This document shows positions 1 through 35,867 of a stretch of 64,000 bases of DNA, in pieces. The notes beneath the pieces are model-generated. The model was not told the DNA's origin, made no database searches, and saw only the letters and a list, made by a program, of their open reading frames with translations. The first letter of the stretch is position 1; every line of letters starts with the position of its first letter. Made by a program: the position numbers and the translations under genes. The stretch spans positions 172,233 through 236,232 of the forward strand of contig CAWFSV010000013.1 of assembly GCA_963818575.1 (NCBI GenBank), read 5' to 3'. Origin of the DNA: an uncultured Chloroflexia bacterium. Lineage in GTDB: Bacteria > Chloroflexota > Anaerolineae > Anaerolineales > E44-bin32.

Positions 1-1875
1 GCAGCCGGCCTTTCGGGCCCGCTTCCGGGCGAAGGGATCGCGCTCGAGCAGGCGCTCGGGCGGGTGACAGCCGAGCCGATCTGGGCTCGCCAGTCGTCAC
101 CGCACTACCATGCGTCGGCGATGGACGGCTACGCGCTGAGGGCAGACTCCACCCGCGGCGCGAATGACCGCTCGCCGGTCGAGCTTCGCGTCGGAGATCA
201 GGCAGTCTACGTCGACACCGGAGACCCTCTCCCCGGGTGGGCGGATGCGGTCGTGCCGATCGAGGACGCCGAGCCGATCGGCGATGGACGGCGCGCCACG
301 CTGCAGTCGATCCGCCTGCGCGCAGCCGTCGTCCCCTGGTCCCATATCCGCCCCATGGGCGAAGACATCGTCGCCAGCGAACTTGTCGTTCCCGCCGGGC
401 ACGTTCTGCGTCCGGTCGATCTCGGAGCGCTCGCCGGAAGCGGACACGCGACGGTCCAGGTCCGACGCCGACCGCGAGTGGCGATCCTGCCAACCGGGAG
501 CGAACTCGTCGCCCCGGGCAGCGCAGCGATCGCCGGCCAGATCATCGAGTTCAACTCGCTGGTGTTGGGAGCTCAGGTGCGCGATTGGGGAGGCGAGCCG
601 CGACGGCTGGCGATCGTGCCGGATGACCTGGAACAGATCAAGACCGCGGTACGGCGTGCCGCCGCCGACGGCGCCGACCTGATCCTGATCAACGCCGGCT
701 CCTCCGCAGGCTCCGAAGATTTCTCGGCCTCGGTCGTCGCCTCGATGGGCGAAGTCCTGGTTCATGGCGTCGCCGTTCGCCCCGGCCACCCGGTGATCCT
801 GGGGATGATCGATGTCGATGGACGGACCCTGCCGGCCATCGGCGTTCCCGGTTACCCGGTGTCCGCCGCGTTGACGGGCGAGATCTTTGTCCAACCGCTG
901 GTCGAGCGGTGGCTGGGCCGCACCCCGTCCGTCCCGACGGAGATCGAGGCGGTCATGACTCGCAAGGTGCACTCGTCGATCGGGGACGAGGAGTTCCTTC
1001 GGGTGACCGTCGGCCGCGTCGGCCCTCGCTTGATTGCCGCCCCGTTGGCACGCGGCGCCGGGGTTCTGACCTCGTTGGTCCGCGCCGACGGCATTGTGCG
1101 CATCCCTGCCGGCGCGCAGGGCCTCGAGGCCGGGCAGCTCGTGCGCGTCCAACTGTACCGGCGCCCGGACGAGGTCGAACGCACGATCGTCGCCCTCGGC
1201 TCGCACGACCTGACGCTCGACCTGATGGCGCAGTTCCTGGCCGGGCGCGGTCGGCGCCTGGCTTCAGCCAACGTCGGCAGTCTCGGGGGGCTGATCGCCC
1301 TGCGCCGGGGCGAGGCCCACCTCGCCGGCAGTCACTTGCTCGACCCCGAGACCGGGGAATACAACCTGCGCTACATCGGTGAGTATCTGCCCGAGACCCC
1401 GGTGGTCGTCATCGGTCTCGTCGGTCGTGAGCAGGGCTTGATCGTAGCTCCCGGCAATCCGCATCGGCTGACGGGTCTGGCCGACCTGGCCGCGGCGGAT
1501 GTGCCGTTCGTCAACCGACAGCGAGGCGCCGGCACGCGGGTGTTGCTCGATTACCACCTGGACAAGGCCGGCATCGACGCCGCGACGATCCGCGGGTACG
1601 AACACGAAGAGTACACACACCTGGCCGTGGCGGCATCGGTTTCCTCTGGGCGCGCGGCGTGCGGTCTGGGGATCCGCGCGGCAGCCGAGGCGCTTTCGCT
1701 AGGCTTTGTGCCGTTGTTCAGCGAACGCTACGACCTGGTGATCCCCCGCGAACACTACGACGGCCCCTTCCTGCGCCCGCTGCTCGACCTGCTCATCGAC
1801 CAGGAGTTTCGCCGTTCCGTCGCCGCCTTGCCTGGATACTCCCTCGAGCCGATGGGGCGGATCATCGCCGGCTGA
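1..1875 (+). CDS. moeA: Molybdopterin molybdenumtransferase MoeA with a C-terminal periplasmic-binding-protein-like domain; 5' end runs off the window
   Basis: ORF 64..1875 stays open in the same frame back to base 1 (..IALEQALGRVTAEPIW..). MoeA motifs are present: SAMDGYA, PTGSEL, INAGSSAGSEDF, VAVRPGHP. The last ~230 aa (LGSHDLTLDL..NRQRGAGTR..) resemble a type-2 PBP/LysR-substrate fold. Confidence 0.85.
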   Translation, partial: AAGLSGPLPGEGIALEQALGRVTAEPIWARQSSPHYHASAMDGYALRADSTRGANDRSPVELRVGDQAVYVDTGDPLPGWADAVVPIEDAEPIGDGRRATLQSIRLRAAVVPWSHIRPMGEDIVASELVVPAGHVLRPVDLGALAGSGHATVQVRRRPRVAILPTGSELVAPGSAAIAGQIIEFNSLVLGAQVRDWGGEPRRLAIVPDDLEQIKTAVRRAAADGADLILINAGSSAGSEDFSASVVASMGEVLVHGVAVRPGHPVILGMIDVDGRTLPAIGVPGYPVSAALTGEIFVQPLVERWLGRTPSVPTEIEAVMTRKVHSSIGDEEFLRVTVGRVGPRLIAAPLARGAGVLTSLVRADGIVRIPAGAQGLEAGQLVRVQLYRRPDEVERTIVALGSHDLTLDLMAQFLAGRGRRLASANVGSLGGLIALRRGEAHLAGSHLLDPETGEYNLRYIGEYLPETPVVVIGLVGREQGLIVAPGNPHRLTGLADLAAADVPFVNRQRGAGTRVLLDYHLDKAGIDAATIRGYEHEEYTHLAVAASVSSGRAACGLGIRAAAEALSLGFVPLFSERYDLVIPREHYDGPFLRPLLDLLIDQEFRRSVAALPGYSLEPMGRIIAG

Positions 1876-1970
1876 GGCATTTGCGTCGCAAGTTCAATCG
1901 GTCTGCCACGCCCGTCCCGTGCTGATGTCCGATGGACCCGGATGCCCCTGACCCGCCGCACCAAGATCCT

Positions 1971-2470
1971 TCTTCGGGTGACGTAGGGGCGAAGCATGCC
2001 GCTCGCCGGCCCGCCGTGCCGAAATCCTCTTCGTGTGACGCAGGGGCGAGCATGCCGTCTCGCCCCGGCCGCCGCGGCCCGTCAGCCTTCTTCGCGTGCG
2101 TAGGGGCGAAGCATGCCGTACGTAGGCGCGATGCTTCGCCCGCACCCACGCCCCTCCGAGCCAACCTTGCTAGTGCGATGCCGCGCCCGCATGCACGCAA
2201 CTGCCGGTCGACGCACGATCCGGACACCTGTGCTCCCGCGGCCGCCGAGATCCGTACGGGGCACGGCGTGCCGTGCCCCTACGACGCGGCATGCGACTTC
2301 GAATGCAGGGCCCAAGGCTGCCGCCGCGGACCGAGACCCTTCTGCGAGTGACGTAGGGGCGAAGCATGCCGTCTCGCACCCCGTTCGGGCCGCGAGCCCC
2401 GCCCCGCCGGGGCGAGACGGCCGGCGTGCCGCCGGGCTTCTCGGCACGAACGGTGCTTCGCCCCTACCTA
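1971..2470. repeat. Cluster of GC-rich hairpin repeats (core GTAGGGGCGAAGCATGCCG, plus GGGGCACGGCGTGCCGTGCCCC) in the convergent gap between moeA and kamA
   Basis: Direct copies of tcttcgNgtgacgtaggggcgaagcatgccg lie at ~1971, ~2027, ~2089 and ~2338. An 11-bp inverted repeat gggcgaagcat/atgcttcgccc lies at ~2103-2140. A near-perfect palindrome ggggcacggcgtgccgtgcccc lies at ~2268-2289, and an inverted copy gcttcgcccctac at ~2455-2468. Confidence 0.8.
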
Positions 2471-2558
2471 CAGGTCCGGCCGCCGTCGCCGGGCGGGAAA
2501 CGAAACGGTGCGGGCAATGCCCGCACCGCCTTCATTCCTTGCCGCGCCGCGCCGACGG

Positions 2559-3950
2559 TCAGTCGCCGGCTTTCTCTTCCACCGGCTTGCGGGCCTTGAT
2601 CGACGGCGGCTCGTCGGGTGGCGGGGGCGCGCCGATCCCGAGCGGCTGCCACTTGGTGGCATCGGCACGCAGCCGGTGCGAGGCGCCGCCACGGCTGTGG
2701 ACGGCGTCGAAACCCTCGGGCTTGATGAACAGCTGCTCGCCATCCAACAGGCTGGTCACGCCAGCCTGCCCCGGCTCGGGTCGCCTGGAGCGGCAATAGG
2801 CGCAGGTTGCGGCATCGTGCGGCTTGTACTCGGCCGGCTCCTGGTAGGTGGTGATCAGGCCTTCGAAGTTGCGCAGCACGACGCGCGCATCCCCTTGACT
2901 GATCGCGTAGTTGGGCATCAGGGGGATCTTGCCCCCGCCGGCCGGAGCATCGACGACGAAGGTCGGCACGGCGTATCCCGAGGTGTGGCCCCGCAGCCCT
3001 TCGATGATCTCGATCCCCTTGGCCACCGGCGTGCGGAAGTGCCCGGCGCCTTCGACCATGTCGCACTGATACAGGTAGTAGGGGCGGACGCGCATCCGCA
3101 CCAGATCCTGCACCAACTGGCGCTGGATGTGGACGCAATCGTTGATCCCGGCCAGGAGCACCGACTGGTTGCCCAGCGGGATGCCGGCCTTCGAGAGCTT
3201 GTCGCAGGCCTCGGCAAGCTCGGAGGTGATCTCATTCGGGTGATTGACGTGGATGTTCAGCCACAGCGGGTGGAACTTCTCCAGCATCGCCGTCAGCTCG
3301 GCGTCGACGCGCATCGGCAGAAAGACCGGGACGCGCGAGCCGATGCGGATGATCTCGATGTGCTCGATCTCGCGCAGGCGGCCGATCAGTTCCTCGAGCA
3401 GCTTCGGCGCCAGCGTCAGCGGGTCGCCACCGGAGAGCAGCACGTCGCGCACCTGAGGCGTGCGGCGCAGGTAGTCGAGCTGCATTTCAAACTCGGCCCG
3501 CGAGAACTGTTCTTTCGGATCGCCGACGATGCGCGAGCGCGTGCAGTAGCGGCAGTAGGAGGCGCACTGGGTCGTCACCAGCATCAGCACGCGGTCCGGA
3601 TAGCGGTGCACCAGGCCGGGAACCGGCGAATGCTCGTCCTCGGACAGCGAGTCTTCCATCATGCCGGTAAACGGCACCATCTCGGCATCCGTCGGGAGCA
3701 CCTGCTGCCGGACGGGGTCCGCCGGGTCATCGGGGTCGATCAAGGACACGAAGTACGGCGTGATGTCCACCCGGAACAGCCCGGGGGCGCTCAGCGCCTT
3801 GCGTTCACTCTCGCTCAGCGGCAGGATCCGTTCCAGATCCTCCACGCTGTTCAACCGGTGACTGAGCTGCCAGCGCCATGAGTTCCACTGATCATCGGGG
3901 ACGTCAGCGTAGGCCGGGGCGCGCTTGGACGGAAAGACTCTCTTCGCCAT
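2559..3950 (-). CDS. kamA: Lysine 2,3-aminomutase (radical SAM, KamA/AblA family)
   Basis: From MAKRVFPSKR.. the ORF carries the radical-SAM CASYCRYC motif and KamA-family blocks (HRYPDRVLMLVT, LSGGDPL, PYYLYQCD, VPTFVVDAPGGGGK). GGAGG lies 7 nt upstream of the ATG at 3950. The 199-aa upstream part of ORF 2559..4547 is Arg/Gly-rich and is not called. Confidence 0.93.
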   Translation of the reverse strand: MAKRVFPSKRAPAYADVPDDQWNSWRWQLSHRLNSVEDLERILPLSESERKALSAPGLFRVDITPYFVSLIDPDDPADPVRQQVLPTDAEMVPFTGMMEDSLSEDEHSPVPGLVHRYPDRVLMLVTTQCASYCRYCTRSRIVGDPKEQFSRAEFEMQLDYLRRTPQVRDVLLSGGDPLTLAPKLLEELIGRLREIEHIEIIRIGSRVPVFLPMRVDAELTAMLEKFHPLWLNIHVNHPNEITSELAEACDKLSKAGIPLGNQSVLLAGINDCVHIQRQLVQDLVRMRVRPYYLYQCDMVEGAGHFRTPVAKGIEIIEGLRGHTSGYAVPTFVVDAPAGGGKIPLMPNYAISQGDARVVLRNFEGLITTYQEPAEYKPHDAATCAYCRSRRPEPGQAGVTSLLDGEQLFIKPEGFDAVHSRGGASHRLRADATKWQPLGIGAPPPPDEPPSIKARKPVEEKAGD

Positions 3951-4260
3951 GTATTGCCTCCACGGGGCCCGCAGGCCGGTCTCCCTGCGGGCGGGGGTTA
4001 AGGATAGCACGGAGGATGGCTCCGCGGGGCACCGCCGGCCGATTTCGCTGCCCGGCTTGGTTAGCCGCTCCTGTGCCGTCCCACGTCTGGCGGGTTTCAG
4101 TTGGCCCCGTCTGCGTCGCTCCGGACGGGCTATGCGCAATCGGACCGTCAGGTCGAGGCCGCAGCCATCGGTCACCACAGGTCTTGTCCGTCGAGTCGAG
4201 GCCTCCACCCGCCAATTCCCGGCCCAGGTCGCGTATGCCGTCGAGCCTCGGCCGGGACAC

Positions 4261-4282
4261 GGGCACGGCGCGCCGTGTGCCC
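4261..4282. repeat. Copy of the GGGCACGGCG/CGCCGTGCCC palindromic repeat
   Basis: gggcacggcgcgccgtgtgccc is the same hairpin family as at ~2268. Confidence 0.6.
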
Positions 4283-4306
4283 AACGAACGGCAGACGGAA
4301 TCGCAA

Positions 4307-4347
4307 GGCCGCATGCTTCGGCGCTGCCCGTCCCGAAGCATGCGGCC
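4307..4347 (-). terminator. Stem-loop 17 nt downstream of the ATP-grasp gene; probable intrinsic terminator
   Basis: Perfect 15-bp inverted repeat ggccgcatgcttcgg / ccgaagcatgcggcc with an 11-nt loop. On the minus strand it is followed by TTGCGATTCC. It shares the CGAAGCATGC core of the repeat family. Confidence 0.6.
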
Positions 4348-4363
4348 GCGGTGGACCGGCTTG

Positions 4364-5566
4364 TTACTCGTCTTCCGCCAGGCCCCAGACGATCGGGCCG
4401 CGCGGCACAGGCTGAGCCAGCGCGTGGGGGCCAACGTCGGCGTACATCAGCGAGTCGAAGGGCAGCGCATTGCGCTCGGCCGCCAGGTACAGGATCTCGG
4501 TGATCAGGTCCTGATACGGCATGCCTTCCGCCGCCGCCACGATGCACAGGTCACTGACCTCCGGATTGAGGCCCGGAAGCGTGTTGATCTCCATCAGGCT
4601 GGGCTCGCCGTGGGCATCCAGCCGCAGGTCCACGCGGGACACATCGCACGCACCGAGCACCTCGGCCGCCTTGCGCGTCAGCTCGATCAGACGCGCACGC
4701 AGCGACCGCGGGATGTTCGTCGGGCAGATGTAGCCCGGCGCACCCGGCGCACCGATGTCGTAACCCTTGGCATCATGGCCGTAGACGCCGGGCGAAACGC
4801 TCACGCCCGAATCGATCTCCATGATCGGGAAGAAGTGGTAGCCGTCATTGTCGTACAGCCACGGCCGGCGGCGGACCGCCGGGAAACCCGGATTGCCGAT
4901 AAAGCCGACGGTGAATTCGCGCCCGGGGAGGTATTCCTCGACCAGCGCCGGCTGCTTGTAGGCCTCCACCGTCAGCGCGACACGCTCGGCCAGCGCCTGC
5001 GGTGTGCGGACGATGGCCCCCATGTCGATGCCCATCCCGGTGCCCTCGCGCACCGGCTTAACGAACAGCGGGTAAGACATCCCGGCGTCATCCACGTCGG
5101 CCGCCGAGTGCGCCTCGAAGAATCGCGGCGTCGGCAGGCCGGCCTGCTGCCAGATTCGCTTGGTCTGCGTCTTGTCGAGCGAGATGGCGTTGGCCAGGAC
5201 GCGCGAGGCGGTGTAGGGGATACCGAGCAGTTCACACAGGGCCGGCGCCTGGGCCTCGCGGCCGTCGCCGCCCAATCCCTCGGCGATGTTGAAGACGATG
5301 TGCGGGCGGATGTTCACCAGCGCTTCGGGAAGGGTCTGATCGGCGCGGCAGAACGTCACCCAGTGCCCATCTTCCTCCATCGCTGCGGCCAGCGACTCGA
5401 TCGTCTCGCGCCGGTCGAACTCCGAGCCGGCATCGGAAGGCGCGTCCGGACCCCAGTCGATCTCATCCTTGAGGTTGGCCACCAGGGCGATGCGCCAGGG
5501 CGGCCGAAGGCGGCTGGGACTGGGAGGCTTTTTGTTATGGGCTCGCGTGCTCTCGTACGTTCTCAT
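4364..5566 (-). CDS. ATP-grasp ligase of the D-alanine--D-alanine ligase family, substrate unknown
   Basis: 400-aa ORF with Ddl-like blocks: LDKTQTKRIWQQAGLPTP, YPLFVKPVREGTGMGI, EEYLPGREFTVGFIGN, MEINTLPGL. It is not RimK/LysX-like by eye. Confidence 0.85.
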   Translation of the reverse strand: MRTYESTRAHNKKPPSPSRLRPPWRIALVANLKDEIDWGPDAPSDAGSEFDRRETIESLAAAMEEDGHWVTFCRADQTLPEALVNIRPHIVFNIAEGLGGDGREAQAPALCELLGIPYTASRVLANAISLDKTQTKRIWQQAGLPTPRFFEAHSAADVDDAGMSYPLFVKPVREGTGMGIDMGAIVRTPQALAERVALTVEAYKQPALVEEYLPGREFTVGFIGNPGFPAVRRRPWLYDNDGYHFFPIMEIDSGVSVSPGVYGHDAKGYDIGAPGAPGYICPTNIPRSLRARLIELTRKAAEVLGACDVSRVDLRLDAHGEPSLMEINTLPGLNPEVSDLCIVAAAEGMPYQDLITEILYLAAERNALPFDSLMYADVGPHALAQPVPRGPIVWGLAEDE

Positions 5567-5694
5567 CGGATTGACCTCATCTCACCTAGGTGTCGGTTTC
5601 AAGTCACAAAGAGAGAGCCATTCCGCTTCCGCAGATGGCCCTCCACGGAAACGCTGCACGTCCCTGCAGCGTGGCGTTGTGGGCCGATCGCATC

Positions 5695-5886
5695 TCAGGC
5701 TACGGACTCCTCCACACGACTCGGTTTCTGCAGCGGCTCCTCGAAGGCCCAGTCGAGCTCGAGGGGCCGCAGCTTGACGACTTCGAGTGCCGCCCGGCAT
5801 GCGGTGCACTCGGTGCGCTCTCCAAGTTCGGGAGCAGATTCGAATGGCACCTGGCTATGGCACTCCGGGCAAGCAGCTTGCAGCAT
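5695..5886 (-). CDS. LysW-like zinc-ribbon (amino-group carrier protein-like) small protein with a non-canonical C-terminal tail
   Basis: 63 aa: MLQAACPECHSQVPFESAPELGERTECTACRAALEVVKLRPLELDWAFEEPLQKPSRVEESVA. The CPxC..CxxC pattern and ELEVV.L.PL.L..DW follow Thermus LysW as I recall it. AGGAGG lies 4 nt before the ATG. Confidence 0.7.
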   Translation of the reverse strand: MLQAACPECHSQVPFESAPELGERTECTACRAALEVVKLRPLELDWAFEEPLQKPSRVEESVA

Positions 5887-5977
5887 GATCCTCCTGGCGA
5901 TTTGGCTCCGCCTGTTCTTACAGGAGGAACCTTATCGCCTTCCTGCGCAAACCGTATTGTTCAAATGTGTAAAGTCC

Positions 5978-6014
5978 GTACAAACAGCCCCCATATCATA
6001 CCATCTTTGTACAA
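5978..6014 (-). promoter_or_regulatory. Candidate extended -10 promoter (TGGTATGAT) flanked by two TTGTAC boxes, upstream of the LysW-like gene
   Basis: This is the only AT-rich patch in the 356-bp gap. On the minus strand TGgTATGAT lies at 6003..5995, with TTGTACAA at 6014..6007 and TTGTAC at 5983..5978, about 31 nt apart. Confidence 0.3.
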
Positions 6015-6242
6015 CCCATGGCGGAGGCGCTCGATGCGGGGGATACGGCTGGCGGTCATGGTCTTTGACTGGGCTTGACAGTATGCCGCCCTGCCTCACC
6101 TTGGGCCGGCCGCTCTCCTCTCCTTCCGGCCTGCGTCTCAGAGACGACGATTCCGACGCACCGGACCGCGTGGACAGACACCACGTGGCCCACAGATGGA
6201 GATCGACCTGCATGAGTTCGGATCGGTTGCTTCGGGAGAGGG

Positions 6243-6929
6243 TTACGGCTGTTCGAGGGAGAAGCGGTAGCCGACGCCGGAGATCGTCTCGATGAACCGC
6301 GGCTTGTCGGGGTCAGGCTCGATCTTGTGGCGCAGCCGCGAAACCAAACCGCGCACCAGGTCGCGATCGCCCTCGCCCGCGTAGCCCCACACGCGTTCGA
6401 CGATCACCTCGGTGGGGACAACCTGATCGCGGTTGGTCATCAGGCTGTAGAGCAGACGGAATTCGAGCTGCGTCAGGCGGCAGGCATCGCGCCCGGCGAC
6501 GGCGACGGTACGCGTCGCCGGATCGAGCGAGATCTCCTCCAGGTCCAGCCGAGGCAGCATGAAGGCCGGGATGGCGCCGCTGCGGCGCAGGACCACGCGT
6601 GCGTACTCGGCGACGAGGCGCGGCGCCGCGGGACGCGCAAGGACGAGATCCGCACCCGCGCGCAAGAGCCCGAGCAATTGCTCCTCGGTGGCCGGTTCGG
6701 ACACGACGATGATCGGGATCTCGGTGACGGCGCGGATGGCGTTCACCTGATCGAGCGCCGGGCCCGGTGCGTCGAGCGCCAGGACGATCAAGTCGGCGGG
6801 GAGTTCGGACCAGTTGGTGAGGATTCGCGTCAGGTCGGTGCCCGGCGAGACGGCCAACCCGGCATGCCGCAGGACGAAGGTCAGCACCTCGCGTTCGTCG
6901 GAGTCGCTGGCGATCAGGAAGGCCTGCAT
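6243..6929 (-). CDS. OmpR/PhoB-family response regulator (receiver + winged-helix)
   Basis: 228 aa. The receiver has the LIVLALDAPG acceptor region. The C-terminus reads LTQLEFRLLYSLM..LVSRLRHKIEPDP..IETISGVGYRF. Confidence 0.88.
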   Translation of the reverse strand: MQAFLIASDSDEREVLTFVLRHAGLAVSPGTDLTRILTNWSELPADLIVLALDAPGPALDQVNAIRAVTEIPIIVVSEPATEEQLLGLLRAGADLVLARPAAPRLVAEYARVVLRRSGAIPAFMLPRLDLEEISLDPATRTVAVAGRDACRLTQLEFRLLYSLMTNRDQVVPTEVIVERVWGYAGEGDRDLVRGLVSRLRHKIEPDPDKPRFIETISGVGYRFSLEQP

Positions 6930-7021
6930 GCTGCGTCACCCTCGCCTTCCCAGCATACCATGGAGCGTCCGCGGGGCTCGCCGATGGGCTTCCGACCACG
7001 TCCGTGCGCAGTTCTAATCCG

Positions 7022-7101
7022 TGGTATCATGGGGCTAATCGTATTGCCGGTTTTTCGGGCATCCAATGCCGTCAGACCCAAGTATGGGATGGACGGCATT
7101 G
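7022..7101 (+). promoter_or_regulatory. Extended -10 (TGgTATCAT, 7022-7030) and a structured 5' leader of the RRM-protein gene
   Basis: Perfect 10-bp hairpin caatgccgtc (7064-7073) / gacggcattg (7092-7101). GAGGAG SD lies at 7121-7126, before the ATG at 7135. Confidence 0.4.
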
Positions 7102-7134
7102 CTGCTCTCCGCCGGACACTGAGGAGCCGATCGC

Positions 7135-7494
7135 ATGGATGTCAAGCTGTATGTTGGGAACCTGACGTACTCGACGACCGAGGACGAACTGCGCACGATG
7201 TTCGCCCAGGCCGGCACCGTGACTTCGGTGGCCCTGATCAAGGACCGCGACACGGGTCAATCCAAGGGGTTCGCCTTCGTCGAGATGAGCACGCAGGCAG
7301 AGGCCCAGAAGGGCATCACCCTGTTCCACGGCAAGGCGCTGAACGGTCGCGACCTTACGGTGAACATGGCTCGCCCACGCGAAGAGCGCGGCGGCTTCGG
7401 TGGTGGTGGTGGTGGCGGTGGCGGGGGCGGCGGCTTCGGCGGCTCACGTGGCGGGTTCGGTGATTCACGCGGCGGCGGCAAGCATCGTCGCTAG
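7135..7494 (+). CDS. RRM-type RNA-binding protein with a glycine-rich tail
   Basis: RNP2 is LYVGNL and RNP1 is KGFAFVEM. The C-terminus is RGGFGGGGGGGGGGGGFGGSRGGFGDSRGGG. Confidence 0.93.
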   Translation: MDVKLYVGNLTYSTTEDELRTMFAQAGTVTSVALIKDRDTGQSKGFAFVEMSTQAEAQKGITLFHGKALNGRDLTVNMARPREERGGFGGGGGGGGGGGGFGGSRGGFGDSRGGGKHRR

Positions 7495-7503
7495 AGGCAG
7501 CGT

Positions 7504-8001
7504 ATGCCATTCGCGGTCAACGACCGGGTCGTACATCCCCTGCATGGAGTTGGAAGGGTCGTCCGTCTGGCAACCCGTCAGTTCGACGCGGGTTCCACAC
7601 GCCTGTACTACGAGATCACACTCACCAAGGGCACGATCTGGGTCCCGGTGGAGGGCAGCGGCGGCGGGCTTCGCCCGCTGACGGCCAGGGGCGAACTGGG
7701 GCGCTACCGCAGTCTGCTCAGCAGCCGGCCGGCGCCCCTCGCCTCCGACCATCGGCAAAGGCAGCTCGAGGTGTCGGCGCGCCTGAAGGCGGGCACGCTG
7801 CGCGCACGATGTGAGGTCATTCGGGACCTCACCGCTCACGCCTGGCACAAGCCACTCTGTCAGTCGAGCGCTGCCCTGCTCCGCCTGGCCCACGAGGCGC
7901 TGGATGAAGAATGGGCGGCGGTCGACGAGGTGCCGGTCCATGAAGTCACGCGCCAGGTCCAGGCGCTGCTGCTCGAGGGCAGGCGCGCGTTCGAGCACTA
8001 A
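7504..8001 (+). CDS. CarD/CdnL-family RNA-polymerase-binding regulator
   Basis: The N-terminus FAVNDRVVHPLHGVGRVV...YYEITL...IWVPV is typical of the CarD_CdnL_TRCF domain. Confidence 0.8.
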   Translation: MPFAVNDRVVHPLHGVGRVVRLATRQFDAGSTRLYYEITLTKGTIWVPVEGSGGGLRPLTARGELGRYRSLLSSRPAPLASDHRQRQLEVSARLKAGTLRARCEVIRDLTAHAWHKPLCQSSAALLRLAHEALDEEWAAVDEVPVHEVTRQVQALLLEGRRAFEH

Positions 8002-33976: not shown

Positions 33977-34666
33977 TCAGCGGCCCTCGCGTCCGGTCCC
34001 TTCGGCCGGCACGTCCAATCGATAGCCCATGCCCCGGATCGTCTTCAACAGGCCGGGGCGGCGCGGATCATCTCCGAGCGAGCGGCGCAGCCAGCTCATG
34101 TGGACATCCAGCGTGCGCGTGTCCCCGGTATAGTCCGTGTGCCAGACCTGCCGGATCAGCGTGGCACGCGTCAGCAGCTTGCCCGGATTGTGCATGAAGA
34201 CCTCGAGCAAGCGCGCCTGTTTCGGCGTGAGGCGTGCATCCTTCCCCCGGCAGCGCACCTTGCGCTGCGCCAGGTTGAGCTTGATCGGACCGACCTCGAG
34301 GCTGAAGCTGTCATCGCCGGGAAGCAGACGGGCGACGCGGTTGAGGAGCTTGCGCGGCGTGAGCGGGTGGACAAGCGTCAGGGTCGCGCCGCTTCCGGGA
34401 TCGGTGCGCGTGCCCGGCGGCGCCACCAGCACGATGGGCACGCCATTGAGCACGCCGCGCGCCGCGCGGCTCATGCGCGTGCCGCTGGTCTTCATCGAGG
34501 CTGCATCCAGGATCAGCAGGTCCGGAGGGGCGTCGGCCAGGCGCGCCAGCGCCGCCTCCACCTGATGGTGCGTGGCGACGGAGTATCCCTTCTTCTCCAA
34601 GGCTGGGGCGAAGGACGGAGCGTTGGCCCGCTCGCTCTCGATCAATAGTATGCGATGAGCCGCCAT
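33977..34666 (-). CDS. OmpR-family response regulator
   Basis: From MAAHRILLIESE..DLLILDAAS.. to LTPKQARLLEVFMHNPGKLLTR..LDVHMSWLRRSL..IRGMGYRL. A TATAAT box lies on the minus strand at ~34722. Confidence 0.85.
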   Translation of the reverse strand: MAAHRILLIESERANAPSFAPALEKKGYSVATHHQVEAALARLADAPPDLLILDAASMKTSGTRMSRAARGVLNGVPIVLVAPPGTRTDPGSGATLTLVHPLTPRKLLNRVARLLPGDDSFSLEVGPIKLNLAQRKVRCRGKDARLTPKQARLLEVFMHNPGKLLTRATLIRQVWHTDYTGDTRTLDVHMSWLRRSLGDDPRRPGLLKTIRGMGYRLDVPAEGTGREGR

Positions 34667-34724
34667 CAGGACCTTTGCGAAAGAACGGGCAGCCCGGAAA
34701 CCGGCTGCCGCATACCTTAAAGCA

Positions 34725-35867
34725 TTATAGCCGCGTTCCGGCGGCGTGCCAATGGGAGTCCGGTTCCGATCGGTTGAAGTTCGCCGGCGCAGCGCGGCGG
34801 TTGAGTGCGAGGCGTTGACTCGTCCGTATGCGGCTGGCGCCGCCACCTTCCGTGCGGCTGCGCCCACCACCGAAGGCACGGAAGGGCTCGCGGTCCAGCC
34901 GTTCCATCAATCGCTGGGCGAAGGCCACGGGCGCAGCCCACAAGCCGAATGGTGACAGTGCCTCGCGCTCCTCGGCGGACCACTGCGGGCTCCCCAGCCA
35001 GCGAGTCACCTGGAGCTGACGGCCCACGGCCCGCGCGGCGTGCTCGACCTCGTCGACGCGCGTGGCGTCGCGGCCCCCGGAGGTCAGAATCCAGGTCGGT
35101 ATGTCCGCAGGCTCCTGGAAGTATTCGAGGTGCGCCCATTCCTCGACGTCCTGGGCGTGATAGGCCAGGCCGCTGGCTTCGAGGACCTTGGCCGCCGCAA
35201 AGCCGGCGGCGCCGTACGCCGGGCCGCTGCCGAGGAAGACACCGTGGGGTGCTTCCGCCACGGAATCGGCGAAGGCCCTGCCCTGCTCACCCTGCCCAGC
35301 GGCGTCTCGCGACATCTGGTCGGGAAGCGAGTCGATCAAGGCGGGGACACGACGCCGATACGCGCCCTGCGCCAGCGATGCTCCGACGGCCAGGACGCCC
35401 AACAGCGCGGCCAGGTAGCTGATCAATCCGGGGCCAAACGGATATTCGGGCAGATCCGCCACGAGCGCCGCATCGGCCGTCCGTGTGAGGGTGCTGTCTT
35501 GGGTGCACGTCATCGCCAGGGTCCGGGCACCGGCGTGATGTGCCTGCTCCAGTGCTTCTACCGTTCGTGCGACTTCGCCGGAGGCTGAGATGCCGATGAC
35601 CAGCCAGTCGGCGCCGGCGTCCTGCATCAAGTACCGGCCGGCCATCATCGAGGTGGCTGCACGCACCCGGCGACCCGTCCACAGCCGGAGGCCGAACTCG
35701 CTTCCCTGCGCGGCGAAATGCGAATCGCCGCACCCGCAGACCAGGAGGGTCGTGAGCCTATCCTCCCATCCGGCGAGCGAGCGTCGCGCCTGGTCGAGGA
35801 GCGCCGGCCAGGCTTCGCCCACGAACGCCGATGCCCGATCGGCCTGGACGGTCAGGGAGTCACGCAA
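34725..35867 (-). CDS. Double-SIS-domain sugar-phosphate isomerase/deglycase (GlmS-C/FrlB/AgaS-like)
   Basis: LLVCGCGDSHFAA, LVIGISASGEVARTVEA, GVFLGSGPAYGAAGFAAAKVLE. TTG start at 35867 with GGAGGG 3 nt upstream. Confidence 0.75.
   Translation of the reverse strand: MRDSLTVQADRASAFVGEAWPALLDQARRSLAGWEDRLTTLLVCGCGDSHFAAQGSEFGLRLWTGRRVRAATSMMAGRYLMQDAGADWLVIGISASGEVARTVEALEQAHHAGARTLAMTCTQDSTLTRTADAALVADLPEYPFGPGLISYLAALLGVLAVGASLAQGAYRRRVPALIDSLPDQMSRDAAGQGEQGRAFADSVAEAPHGVFLGSGPAYGAAGFAAAKVLEASGLAYHAQDVEEWAHLEYFQEPADIPTWILTSGGRDATRVDEVEHAARAVGRQLQVTRWLGSPQWSAEEREALSPFGLWAAPVAFAQRLMERLDREPFRAFGGGRSRTEGGGASRIRTSQRLALNRRAAPANFNRSEPDSHWHAAGTRL

Follow-up and report, generated by a model that had tools for sequence, protein, structure and literature searches.

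What brings a LysW-like zinc ribbon, a D-alanine-D-alanine ligase (Ddl)-type enzyme and a lysine 2,3-aminomutase together in one place, and what might such a gene cluster do? The question is raised by a 64,000-nucleotide stretch of DNA from an uncultured Chloroflexia bacterium (hereafter the window), in which a first-pass annotation had placed these three genes on the minus strand. Their positions are confirmed: W (5695-5886) encodes the zinc ribbon, LIG (4364-5566) the ligase and kamA (2559-3950) the aminomutase. Directly upstream of W, on the same strand, lies a gene for a regulator (RR; 6243-6929), which that annotation had missed, as it had the paralogous family to which W belongs and the LIG genes that occur without W or kamA and keep an invariant pocket.

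About 30 Chloroflexota loci share the order regulator-W-LIG-KamA amid unrelated flanking genes, and the arrangement is kept over 50-98% LIG identity. The order W-LIG-KamA is found again in dozens of loci with differing flanks, so the arrangement reflects more than chance. A survey of ligase neighbourhoods, as first suggested, shows the pairing with W to be conserved across Chloroflexota: 43 of the 77 LIG loci with upstream room have a W gene 17-130 nt 5' of LIG in the same orientation, and most clades of the LIG tree contain it. The four-gene module is specific to Chloroflexota. We found no published description of a regulator-W-LIG-KamA operon, which apparently represents a conserved and undescribed operon of this phylum.

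The place of kamA in this unit had been doubted on account of a 413-nt gap between LIG and kamA and a hairpin within it. Both features are present, the latter as a perfect 15-bp inverted repeat (GGCCGCATGCTTCGG at 4307-4321, CCGAAGCATGCGGCC at 4333-4347). The doubt itself can be set aside. LIG and kamA sit next to each other in 38 of the 64 loci that extend far enough on either side; their order varies and overlaps are frequent. Since the two genes abut or overlap in other lineages (gaps of -22 to about +230 nt), kamA is part of the unit. The inverted repeat (4307..4347) is related to a repeat family 3' of kamA, and the spacer in the window is a lineage-specific repeat insertion.

KamA is an L-lysine 2,3-aminomutase of the KamA/AblA type, as originally identified. 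The 463-aa protein begins at the ATG at position 3950 (MAKRVF...), not at 4547, where a 662-aa open reading frame starts. It contains LAM_C and Radical_SAM domains, exceeds the cutoff of NCBIfam model TIGR03820 (534.8 versus 525.4) and aligns over residues 9-415 with Clostridium subterminale LAM (PDB 2A5H; 534 bits). The CxxxCxxC motif, R134, D293, D330 and K337 are conserved, D293 and D330 being lysine-specific, and a Pro-rich C-terminal extension of ~50 aa is present. Together, these features are strong sequence evidence for a predicted conversion of free L-lysine to beta-lysine. KamA also scores above the equivalog cutoff for AblA, the partner of AblB in synthesis of the osmolyte N-epsilon-acetyl-beta-lysine; unlike that system, the window holds no AblB acetyltransferase, and the GNAT of variant loci is RimI-like.

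By its sequence, W is a LysW homologue with a LysW-fold C4 zinc ribbon, as the first reading had it. The 63-aa protein matches Pfam Zn_ribbon_LysW (PF21344; 39.9 bits, gathering cutoff 27) and Thermus LysW (PDB 3WWL; E=2.4e-7). The zinc ligands are C6, C9, C27 and C30; an arm, LELDWAFEEP, and a tail, LQKPSRVEESVA, complete the chain, with 17 residues after DW rather than the 15 first counted. The sequence AGGAGG lies 4 nt 5' of the ATG, and arm and tail are kept in 13 orthologues at 67-97% identity. W shares with LysW/ArgW, which work with LysX/ArgX in Thermus, Sulfolobus and Thermococcus, and with the Streptomyces AmCP its small size, its acidic character and its C4 zinc ribbon; it also shares a flexible arm in which acidic residues come after a DW motif, and a gene position beside that of an ATP-grasp ligase. 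It differs from these systems in lacking the terminal EDWGE, its arm being internal and followed by a variable tail; in scoring 33.5 against the TIGR01206 lysW model, below the equivalog cutoff of 53.2; and in having a Ddl-fold ligase beside it and no RimK-type partner. No lysY/Z/J/K-like genes occur among the 25 window ORFs scanned, in agreement with the first-pass annotation. On these grounds W was rejected as a canonical LysW, even though source databases label it "lysine biosynthesis protein LysW".

The W family is also unlike LysW and AmCP in being large, paralogous, multi-ribbon and tightly linked to a transcription regulator. It includes tandem copies, double and triple ribbons, and hyper-acidic (D/E/Y-rich) or basic tails, with up to seven paralogues at one locus. 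Tails are conserved inside orthologue groups and wholly different between W clades. The consensus of 218 ribbon units is D-W-A-[FY]-[DE]-[ED]-P; 81% of units have an acidic residue at W+2 to W+4, W+3 and W+4 are each acidic in just 56%, and D45 is the sole acidic residue invariant across the family. No acceptor lysine is conserved in W. All eight W proteins looked up separately adjoin the regulator or LIG, and many W genes have no LIG close by.

LIG, a 400-aa protein, is Ddl-type and not RimK-type, as had been claimed: it matches Dala_Dala_lig_C (PF07478) at 89 bits with no RimK domain match, and the top 50 PDB matches of its AF2 model (pLDDT 80.6) are Ddl chains only, with TM about 0.8 normalised to the target and 22-27% identity. 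The fold and all ATP, Mg and catalytic residues of Ddl and VanA are retained. LIG differs from these enzymes in falling far below every NCBIfam Ddl/Van cutoff (best 161.6 versus 243) and in its substrate pocket, where H63 is replaced by E96, Y216 by Gly, Ser or Ala, and L282 by D339. It further carries a conserved basic N-terminal peptide of 24 aa and a ~25-aa insertion before the omega-loop region, and it keeps company with W, KamA and the regulator rather than with a cell-wall cluster. All 82 orthologues compared share E49, D51, E96, D339 and C341. LIG genes without W form the rr[L]K clade and a LIG-alone clade, and others occur without kamA; the pocket is the same in all of them. Source databases annotate LIG as "D-alanine-D-alanine ligase". 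The evidence is strong, at the level of sequence, that LIG is a predicted active ATP-grasp amide ligase of another specificity, and the acidic E96 and D339 would fit a cationic amine substrate.

RR is an atypical OmpR-family regulator that combines a winged-helix DNA-binding domain (Trans_reg_C, 79.7 bits) with a degenerate receiver domain (Response_reg, 24.3 bits, below the cutoff of 30.2). Aligned with PhoB, it has lost the acidic pocket, mostly carries Ala at the position of D53, and has Arg in place of K105 in 28 of 31 orthologues. RR is the most constant neighbour of W: about 27 of 30 metagenome loci centred on W, and five of the eight look-ups, have it directly 5' of W. Between the two genes, on the minus strand, is an array of TTGxACA-type direct repeats (5944..6014), comprising TTGTACA (6014-6008), TTGTACG (5983-5977), TTACACA (5972-5966), TTGAACA (5964-5958) and TTGCGCA (5950-5944). 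A count over 48 non-redundant RR-W spacers gives 128 copies of the motif T[TG][GAT]N[AG]C[AG], against 51.7 +/- 7.4 in shuffles (largest 74); the distances between copies show sharp peaks at 11, 20-22, 31, 33 and 42 nt. The repeats are probable binding sites of the regulator.

LIG starts 128 nt downstream of W. The spacer contains an 8-bp stem-loop on the minus strand (5651..5672; ACGCTGCA-GGGACG-TGCAGCGT), which a consensus terminator scan did not flag, and has a folding energy of -48.8 kcal/mol (z -1.65). Over 25 W-LIG spacers z has the same median, -1.65, and several spacers fall below -2.7. The stem-loop may act by read-through attenuation and so set the W:LIG ratio; structured spacers fit the production of more W than LIG.

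Our tentative explanation, favoured without great confidence, is that W binds to LIG, which joins an amine, most probably beta-lysine in the window's clade, to a carboxylate of the W arm. KamA would supply beta-lysine and LIG the ligase activity predicted above, and W would partner LIG in the same dedicated way as LysW partners LysX. The zinc ribbon would dock on LIG, and the arm, D-W-A-F-[D/E]-[E/D]-P, would place an internal Asp or Glu side-chain carboxylate in the active site, where LIG would phosphorylate and then amidate it. The attachment point of LysW is the side chain of a Glu two residues past the DW motif, and an internal Glu or Asp of W could therefore serve equally. The regulator would control the operon via the TTGxACA repeats; speculatively, given the degenerate receiver domain and the constant presence of W beside the regulator, the state of W may feed back on it. 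That beta-lysine can be attached to a protein is known from EpmB-EpmA, which beta-lysylates EF-P, although LIG is an ATP-grasp enzyme rather than a LysRS paralogue and W has no conserved acceptor lysine. The linkage of W to LIG, W-LIG pairs that lack the regulator (L123, L124), LIG-kamA adjacency, LysW homology, the acidic residues after DW in most ribbon units, the retained catalytic residues and acidic pocket of LIG, the lysine-specific residues of KamA, the repeats 5' of W and the structured W-LIG spacers speak for amidation of W. Against it, no conserved gene for processing or releasing a W-bound intermediate is present (no LysZ/Y/J/K-like enzyme, no hydrolase), no W-LIG fusion occurs among the ~270 family members listed, and an acidic LIG pocket would hardly be expected to receive an acidic arm whose acidic positions, D45 apart, vary; in addition, LIG genes without W encode an identical pocket, and W also stands beside the regulator where LIG is absent nearby. 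The characterised Ddl-fold enzymes use, to our knowledge, small molecules at both sites. The original interpretation thus stands as to the LysW homologue, the Ddl-type ligase, their pairing and the membership of kamA; a covalent-carrier role for W is not established.

A regulatory role for W is a serious rival, rather unlikely as we judge it, because the regulator is its constant neighbour, W-regulator pairs exist without a ligase (LIG is absent nearby in several W look-ups) and LIG without W keeps its pocket. On this view LIG would not act on W; W would instead work with the OmpR-type regulator, for instance as a co-regulator or as an anti-activator standing in for phosphorylation. In this clade LIG and KamA would simply be regulated targets and would jointly produce a free beta-lysine compound: LIG would join the product of the mutase to another small molecule, giving perhaps a dipeptide, an oligomer or a compatible solute. 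The degenerate receiver domain means that some other input is needed, some of the ligase-free pairs adjoin a LysE-type exporter, duplicated GreA paralogues stand among the W genes at some loci, and the cluster has no enzyme to handle a carrier-bound intermediate. Acidic substitutions at both LIG sub-sites would suit two diamino acids. In the pyrrolysine pathway, too, a radical-SAM lysine mutase (PylB) feeds a Ddl-like ligase (PylC) whose gene lies nearby; here, however, KamA is a 2,3-aminomutase and not a methylornithine synthase, PylD is absent, a LysW-like protein is present, and no PylC model is among the best 25 NCBIfam matches of LIG. The regulator-free W-LIG pairs count against this role, as do W genes on both sides of LIG (L042, L045, L051, L035) and the resemblance of the acidic DW arm to the EDWGE arm of LysW. 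We know of LysW-fold proteins solely as carrier partners of ATP-grasp enzymes, and a transcription factor 5' of an operon would be no surprise under any function of W.

It is improbable, though it would account for several features, that W is a substrate of lasting modification rather than a transient carrier. LIG would extend the variable tails by a single residue or by many (beta-lysine, lysine or another), much as RimK modifies ribosomal protein S6 and as tubulin-modifying ligases act; the end product would be W in its modified form, and the ribbon possibly a folded leader, as in RiPPs. The multiplied paralogues and ribbons, hypervariable tails that are conserved inside orthologue groups, W genes flanking LIG on both sides and the absence of release enzymes agree with such an end state, whereas the LIG pocket is invariant though tails differ completely among clades, no protease or exporter of the RiPP-cluster type is present, many W genes are remote from LIG, and KamA resembles a free-lysine enzyme. 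Chance adjacency of ordinary functions (W as LysW of an alpha-aminoadipate pathway encoded elsewhere, LIG as Ddl, kamA as an independent osmolyte or lysine-catabolism gene) would match the database labels and the hairpin-bearing 413-nt spacer, but is very improbable given the arrangement conserved among unrelated flanks, the missing EDWGE and sub-cutoff lysW score of W, the Ddl scores of LIG and its loss of H63, Y216 and L282, and the LIG/kamA overlaps in many lineages.

For the Chloroflexota that carry it, the operon suggests new chemistry, either protein-linked or based on beta-lysine.

Comparison of loci across genomes shows a conserved module of four genes, all co-oriented on the minus strand of the window. 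It comprises an atypical OmpR-type regulator (RR, 6243–6929, 228 aa), a 63-aa C4 zinc ribbon (W, 5695–5886) with a ribosome-binding site, AGGAGG, in front of it, a 400-aa ATP-grasp ligase (LIG, 4364–5566) lying 128 nt 3' of W and, after a 413-nt spacer, the lysine 2,3-aminomutase gene kamA (2559–3950). The first-pass annotation had described W, LIG and kamA from the sequence alone, and that description is borne out in all but two details: the true start of kamA is MAKRVF at 3950, and W continues 17 aa rather than 15 aa past its DW motif.

The proposed membership of W in the LysW family agrees with profile searches, in which W matches Pfam Zn_ribbon_LysW (PF21344) at 39.9 bits against a gathering cutoff of 27. 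It also matches LysW entries in the PDB (Thermus 3WWL, E = 2.4e-7; 5K2M, E = 1.1e-4), and its four zinc-ribbon cysteines are invariant. An AF2 model of W alone is of low confidence (pLDDT 69); its fold search places LysW chains at ranks 1, 9 and 27, all with E > 1 and so without significance. W stays below the lysW cutoffs of TIGR01206 (33.5 vs 53.2) and NF041070 (20 vs 75). Its C-terminus ends in ...LDWAFEEPLQKPSRVEESVA, without the EDWGE-type end, as originally claimed, and the C-terminal residue differs from clade to clade. By these comparisons, W is a LysW homologue, yet no canonical LysW.

A profile search over 1.84 billion representative proteins places W in a family of 1093 clusters, among which double or triple ribbons are common. 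Alignment of 218 ribbon units gives the post-ribbon signature D-W-A-[F/Y]-[D/E]-[E/D]-P-[L/I/F], with D45 essentially invariant and an acidic residue at W+2 to W+4 in 81% of units. W thus has the LysW fold by sequence evidence, and its acidic DW arm is conserved. The tail beyond the arm is kept within an orthologue group, where EEPLPKPSRLEESVA persists at 67–97% identity, whereas tails of different groups are wholly unlike, being neutral, basic (..SRRGMKRLF) or extraordinarily D/E/Y-rich. Extreme tails of W paralogues include DDYDDDYDDDDDYDYDDDDDDDY and DDDWDDDWDDDDEDY, while others are basic with an aromatic last residue, and in double and triple ribbons the tails have turned into linkers. 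Unusual tails or multiple ribbons occur at loci L014, L030, L035, L042, L050, L062 and L079–L083 and in protein clusters P0140 and P0142. Among the 150 best of the 1093 clusters and 120 further matches, W was never found fused to LIG, to the regulator or to an enzyme of any kind, and only tandem ribbons turned up; a candidate fusion to a TPR protein (P0194) proved a false positive.

The adjacent ligase was assigned to the Ddl rather than the RimK type, and HMM searches agree: LIG scores 89 bits against Dala_Dala_lig_C and gives no match to RimK. Its AF2 model (pLDDT 80.6) retrieves only Ddl structures among the top 50 Foldseek hits, with TM scores of ~0.8 normalised to the target and 22–27% identity. 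LIG nevertheless falls under every curated Ddl/Van cutoff, the best being NF002378 (161.6 vs 243), with TIGR01205 at 127.8 vs 245.65; no equivalog model exceeds 86.6, their cutoffs being at least 310. When compared with E. coli DdlB, in an alignment of ~25% identity, LIG keeps the residues for ATP, Mg and catalysis (K97, K144, E180, E187, K215, R255, D257, E270 and N272), the Lys/Glu/Arg/Asp/Asn set of D-alanine–D-alanine ligases (EC 6.3.2.4). In the same alignment, whose low identity calls for caution, the D-Ala pocket is replaced: H63 of DdlB becomes Glu (E96), S150 becomes Thr, Y216 becomes Gly, Ser or Ala, and L282 becomes Asp (D339). Whatever their neighbours, all 82 LIG orthologues share E49, D51, E96, D339 and C341. 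Together, these features show LIG as a predicted active ATP-grasp ligase other than Ddl, and the added acidic side chains point to a positively charged substrate, for which lysine and beta-lysine are candidates.

KamA scores 534.8 against the AblA/lysine-2,3-aminomutase equivalog TIGR03820 (cutoff 525.4) and aligns end to end with the Clostridium subterminale enzyme 2A5H at 534 bits. Residue by residue, the CxxxCxxC motif, R134, D293, D330 and K337 are all conserved; in the published structure, these are the radical-SAM motif, three lysine-binding residues (R134, D293 and D330) and the PLP lysine (K337). The score, alignment and conserved residues together indicate that KamA is very probably a true 2,3-aminomutase of free lysine, making beta-lysine. 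Its C-terminus (2559–2720) carries a Pro- and Lys-rich extension of ~50 aa past the end of the C. subterminale protein. An AblB-type acetyltransferase is absent from the window.

LIG homologues of 50–99% identity are abundant, and in every case with a named source they come from Chloroflexota. Three long contigs and 80 genome loci were surveyed with our own ORF, HMM and clustering analysis. Across 82 loci, W lies near LIG in 51, the regulator in 49 and KamA in 48, and these three are the only recurring gene families. The remaining clusters present in at least 10 loci are antisense or overlapping-frame shadow ORFs, GreA, and GNAT or NUDIX proteins. In the 64 loci that leave room to either side of LIG, W adjoins it in 38 and KamA likewise in 38; at least one of the two does so in 51, and both in 25. 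The pairing of the ligase with W and kamA is thus kept across Chloroflexota.

A neighbour-joining tree of LIG sorts gene contexts by clade. With R for the regulator (lower case when on the opposite strand), K for KamA, G for GreA and [L] for LIG, the clade of the window reads R-W-[L]-K throughout ~30 loci, at 60–98% LIG identity and with differing flanks. Other clades show rr[L]K (without W), RW[L], GW[L]W, RWW[L]WG, W[L]K-LIG2-GNAT, K[L]-LIG2-GNAT or LIG alone. Residues 1–24 of LIG form a conserved basic peptide, M.TYEST..HNKKPP....RPPW, which neither Ddl nor the K[L]-LIG2-GNAT clade has; W is not adjacent in that clade. The peptide has low pLDDT in the model. Ten variant loci (L025, L044, L046, L048, L054, L057, L075, L077, L079 and L083) also encode LIG2, another Ddl-like paralogue, with a gene for a RimI-like GNAT acetyltransferase behind it, in the order KamA-LIG-LIG2-GNAT or W-LIG-KamA-LIG2-GNAT. 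The LIG2 pocket differs from that of LIG (D51 to G, D101 to R/K, G332 to D and D339 to G), and AblB was rejected as an identity for the GNAT. No second LIG, second KamA or W paralogue was found elsewhere in the window. The ORF downstream of kamA, at 64–1875, encodes MoeA in fusion with a PBP-like domain (NF011068, 709 bits). In loci L001 and L002, this position is likewise taken by MoeA and PBP_like genes, so local synteny reaches past the module in close relatives.

The long gap before kamA had raised the caveat that this gene might be an independent unit. In most lineages, however, LIG and kamA are separated by only −22 to ~+230 nt and the spacer of the window is made of a local repeat family, and kamA therefore belongs to a unit with LIG. 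The 413-nt spacer holds a perfect 15-bp hairpin (4307–4347), and its repeat family also fills 1950–2470, downstream of kamA. These short GC-rich repeats, at 1950–2470 and 4300–4350, include GTAGGGGCGAAGCATGCC in exactly three copies (1983, 2100 and 2353) vs 0.09 expected by chance, with inverted copies at 2454–2467 and related pieces within the LIG–kamA spacer. The family looks like a REP-like intergenic element, which would explain the unusually long spacers of this lineage. Spacers between W and LIG tend to be structured (median z −1.65), and that of the window contains an 8-bp stem-loop (5672–5651); such folding fits a predicted expression of W above that of LIG. An Rfam scan of 1800–7200 at E ≤ 1 gave no match, hence no known riboswitch or leader.

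The regulator retains the winged-helix output domain of OmpR/PhoB-type proteins (Trans_reg_C, 79.7 bits vs a cutoff of 26.2), while its receiver scores under the Response_reg cutoff (24.3 vs 30.2). In an alignment with PhoB, the acidic pocket residues are replaced, 28 of 31 orthologues have Arg at the K105 position, and the D53 column is mostly Ala, the regulator of the window having an Asp two residues off. Such a receiver probably works independently of phosphorylation. In the spacers between RR and W of 48 non-redundant loci, TTGxACA-like heptamers occur 128 times, vs 51.7 ± 7.4 in shuffles, and their spacings peak sharply at 11, 20–22, 31, 33 and 42 nt. Five putative sites lie on the minus strand of the window (6014–6008, 5983–5977, 5972–5966, 5964–5958 and 5950–5944), and the spacing is that expected of putative OmpR/PhoB-type tandem sites. 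A second OmpR-type regulator (33977–34879) also has a sub-threshold receiver (27.3 vs 30.2). Just upstream of RR, on the opposite strand, are two small genes (7135–7494 and 7504–8001), one RRM-type RNA-binding by eye, with a Gly-rich tail, and the other CarD/CdnL-like and RNA-polymerase-binding (CarD_TRCF_RID).

Among metagenome contigs carrying W, the regulator is directly upstream in ~27 of 30 loci and LIG is next in ~20 of 30, with kamA after LIG wherever the contig is long enough; the chief alternative is RR-W-GreA-W. In eight further look-ups of W, not selected for a nearby ligase, every W adjoins the regulator or LIG. Five adjoin the regulator, four of them without LIG, and three adjoin LIG, two of them without a regulator nearby; the third, L120, has both and is counted in each group. 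W accordingly has two independent, recurrent partners. A LysE-family gene of the basic amino-acid exporter type lies near three of the four ligase-less regulator–W pairs (L117/L118, L119 and L122) and may tie the pair to lysine homeostasis; as a general neighbour it was discarded, being confined to three lineages of RR-W pairs and found in none of the LIG-centred loci. In loci L042, L045, L051, L059, L060, L063, L104–L108 and L120, duplicated GreA genes, genuine by the NCBIfam cutoff, stand between W genes in arrangements such as RR-W-GreA-W and GreA-W-LIG-W, which hints that the W family is linked to transcription.

W shares the C4 zinc-ribbon domain of LysW/ArgW and differs from them in other respects. 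LysW/ArgW end in an EDWGE-type tail whose last Glu bears the substrate, and they pair with RimK/LysX/ArgX-type ligases, whereas W lacks such a tail and adjoins a Ddl-fold ligase. In LysW/ArgW systems, clustered LysZ, LysY, LysJ and LysK act on the carrier-bound intermediate; in line with the first-pass annotation, neither lysY/Z/J/K-like genes nor AA_kinase, semialdehyde dehydrogenase, class-III aminotransferase or M20 peptidase were found among the conserved neighbours of the 82 loci and the 25 window ORFs scanned. LysW-type carriers are known only with RimK-type ligases, in lysine and arginine biosynthesis and a few Streptomyces pathways. In canonical LysW, the substrate is borne by a Glu side chain located two residues past DW, so a free C-terminus is chemically unnecessary; by analogy, an internal Asp or Glu of the W arm could take the role of that Glu. 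An acceptor lysine on W, as in an EF-P model, is ruled out by the lack of any conserved Lys.

Our tentative reading, possible though short of probable, is that W would dock on LIG and that one arm carboxylate would form an amide, for which beta-lysine would supply the amine in the clade of the window. The operon would be controlled by the regulator through the TTGxACA-like repeats. A fuller version, which we consider doubtful, is that Ddl-fold LIG attaches KamA-made beta-lysine covalently to an internal Asp or Glu of W and that loaded W might be read by the adjacent, phosphorylation-independent regulator.

The main rival, itself somewhat unlikely, holds that W partners the regulator and that the joint product of LIG and KamA is a free beta-lysine compound, much as PylB feeds PylC in the pyrrolysine pathway. 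Regulator–W pairs without LIG speak for it, as do LIG genes without W, in which the pocket is unchanged; no enzyme to handle a carrier-bound intermediate is present, and characterised Ddl-fold enzymes are not known to use other than small-molecule substrates. On the other side stand the loci in which W adjoins LIG, including those with no regulator nearby. A reading of W as subject to tail modification or as RiPP-like is improbable. Graspetide systems combine a short leader–core precursor with an ATP-grasp macrocyclase and, in most cases, a protease or an exporter, whereas here the ligase is Ddl-fold, the would-be leader is a folded zinc ribbon, and the survey of 82 loci revealed no conserved protease or transporter around LIG. 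That an ordinary LysW, Ddl and KamA lie side by side by chance is very improbable, given that the arrangement recurs at widely differing LIG identities amid differing flanks.

W and LIG are a carrier-like protein and ATP-grasp ligase pair within a module that is real, conserved and undescribed, and whose chemistry we infer. Neither NCBIfam (release 20) nor Pfam holds a model specific for W or LIG, and full-text literature searches turned up no description of the arrangement, though the Iyer/Aravind amidoligase survey may mention it. Source databases name W "lysine biosynthesis protein LysW" and LIG "D-alanine-D-alanine ligase" in hundreds of entries; both labels are probably wrong and affect metabolic reconstructions of metagenome-assembled Chloroflexota genomes. 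The module joins the LysW fold to a ligase of the Ddl fold and a radical-SAM enzyme that forms beta-lysine, under a dedicated atypical regulator, and it is kept across a phylum that is major and for the most part uncultured. If the proposed loading of W is correct, the module would be the first case of an amino-group carrier or acceptor served by a ligase other than the RimK/LysX type, and the first of protein beta-lysylation catalysed by an ATP-grasp enzyme, and a regulator reading loaded W would amount to metabolite sensing via a protein tag. Carrier-protein chemistry would then reach a second ligase lineage and beta-amino acids; if W instead partners the regulator, a carrier fold would have been recruited to transcription control.
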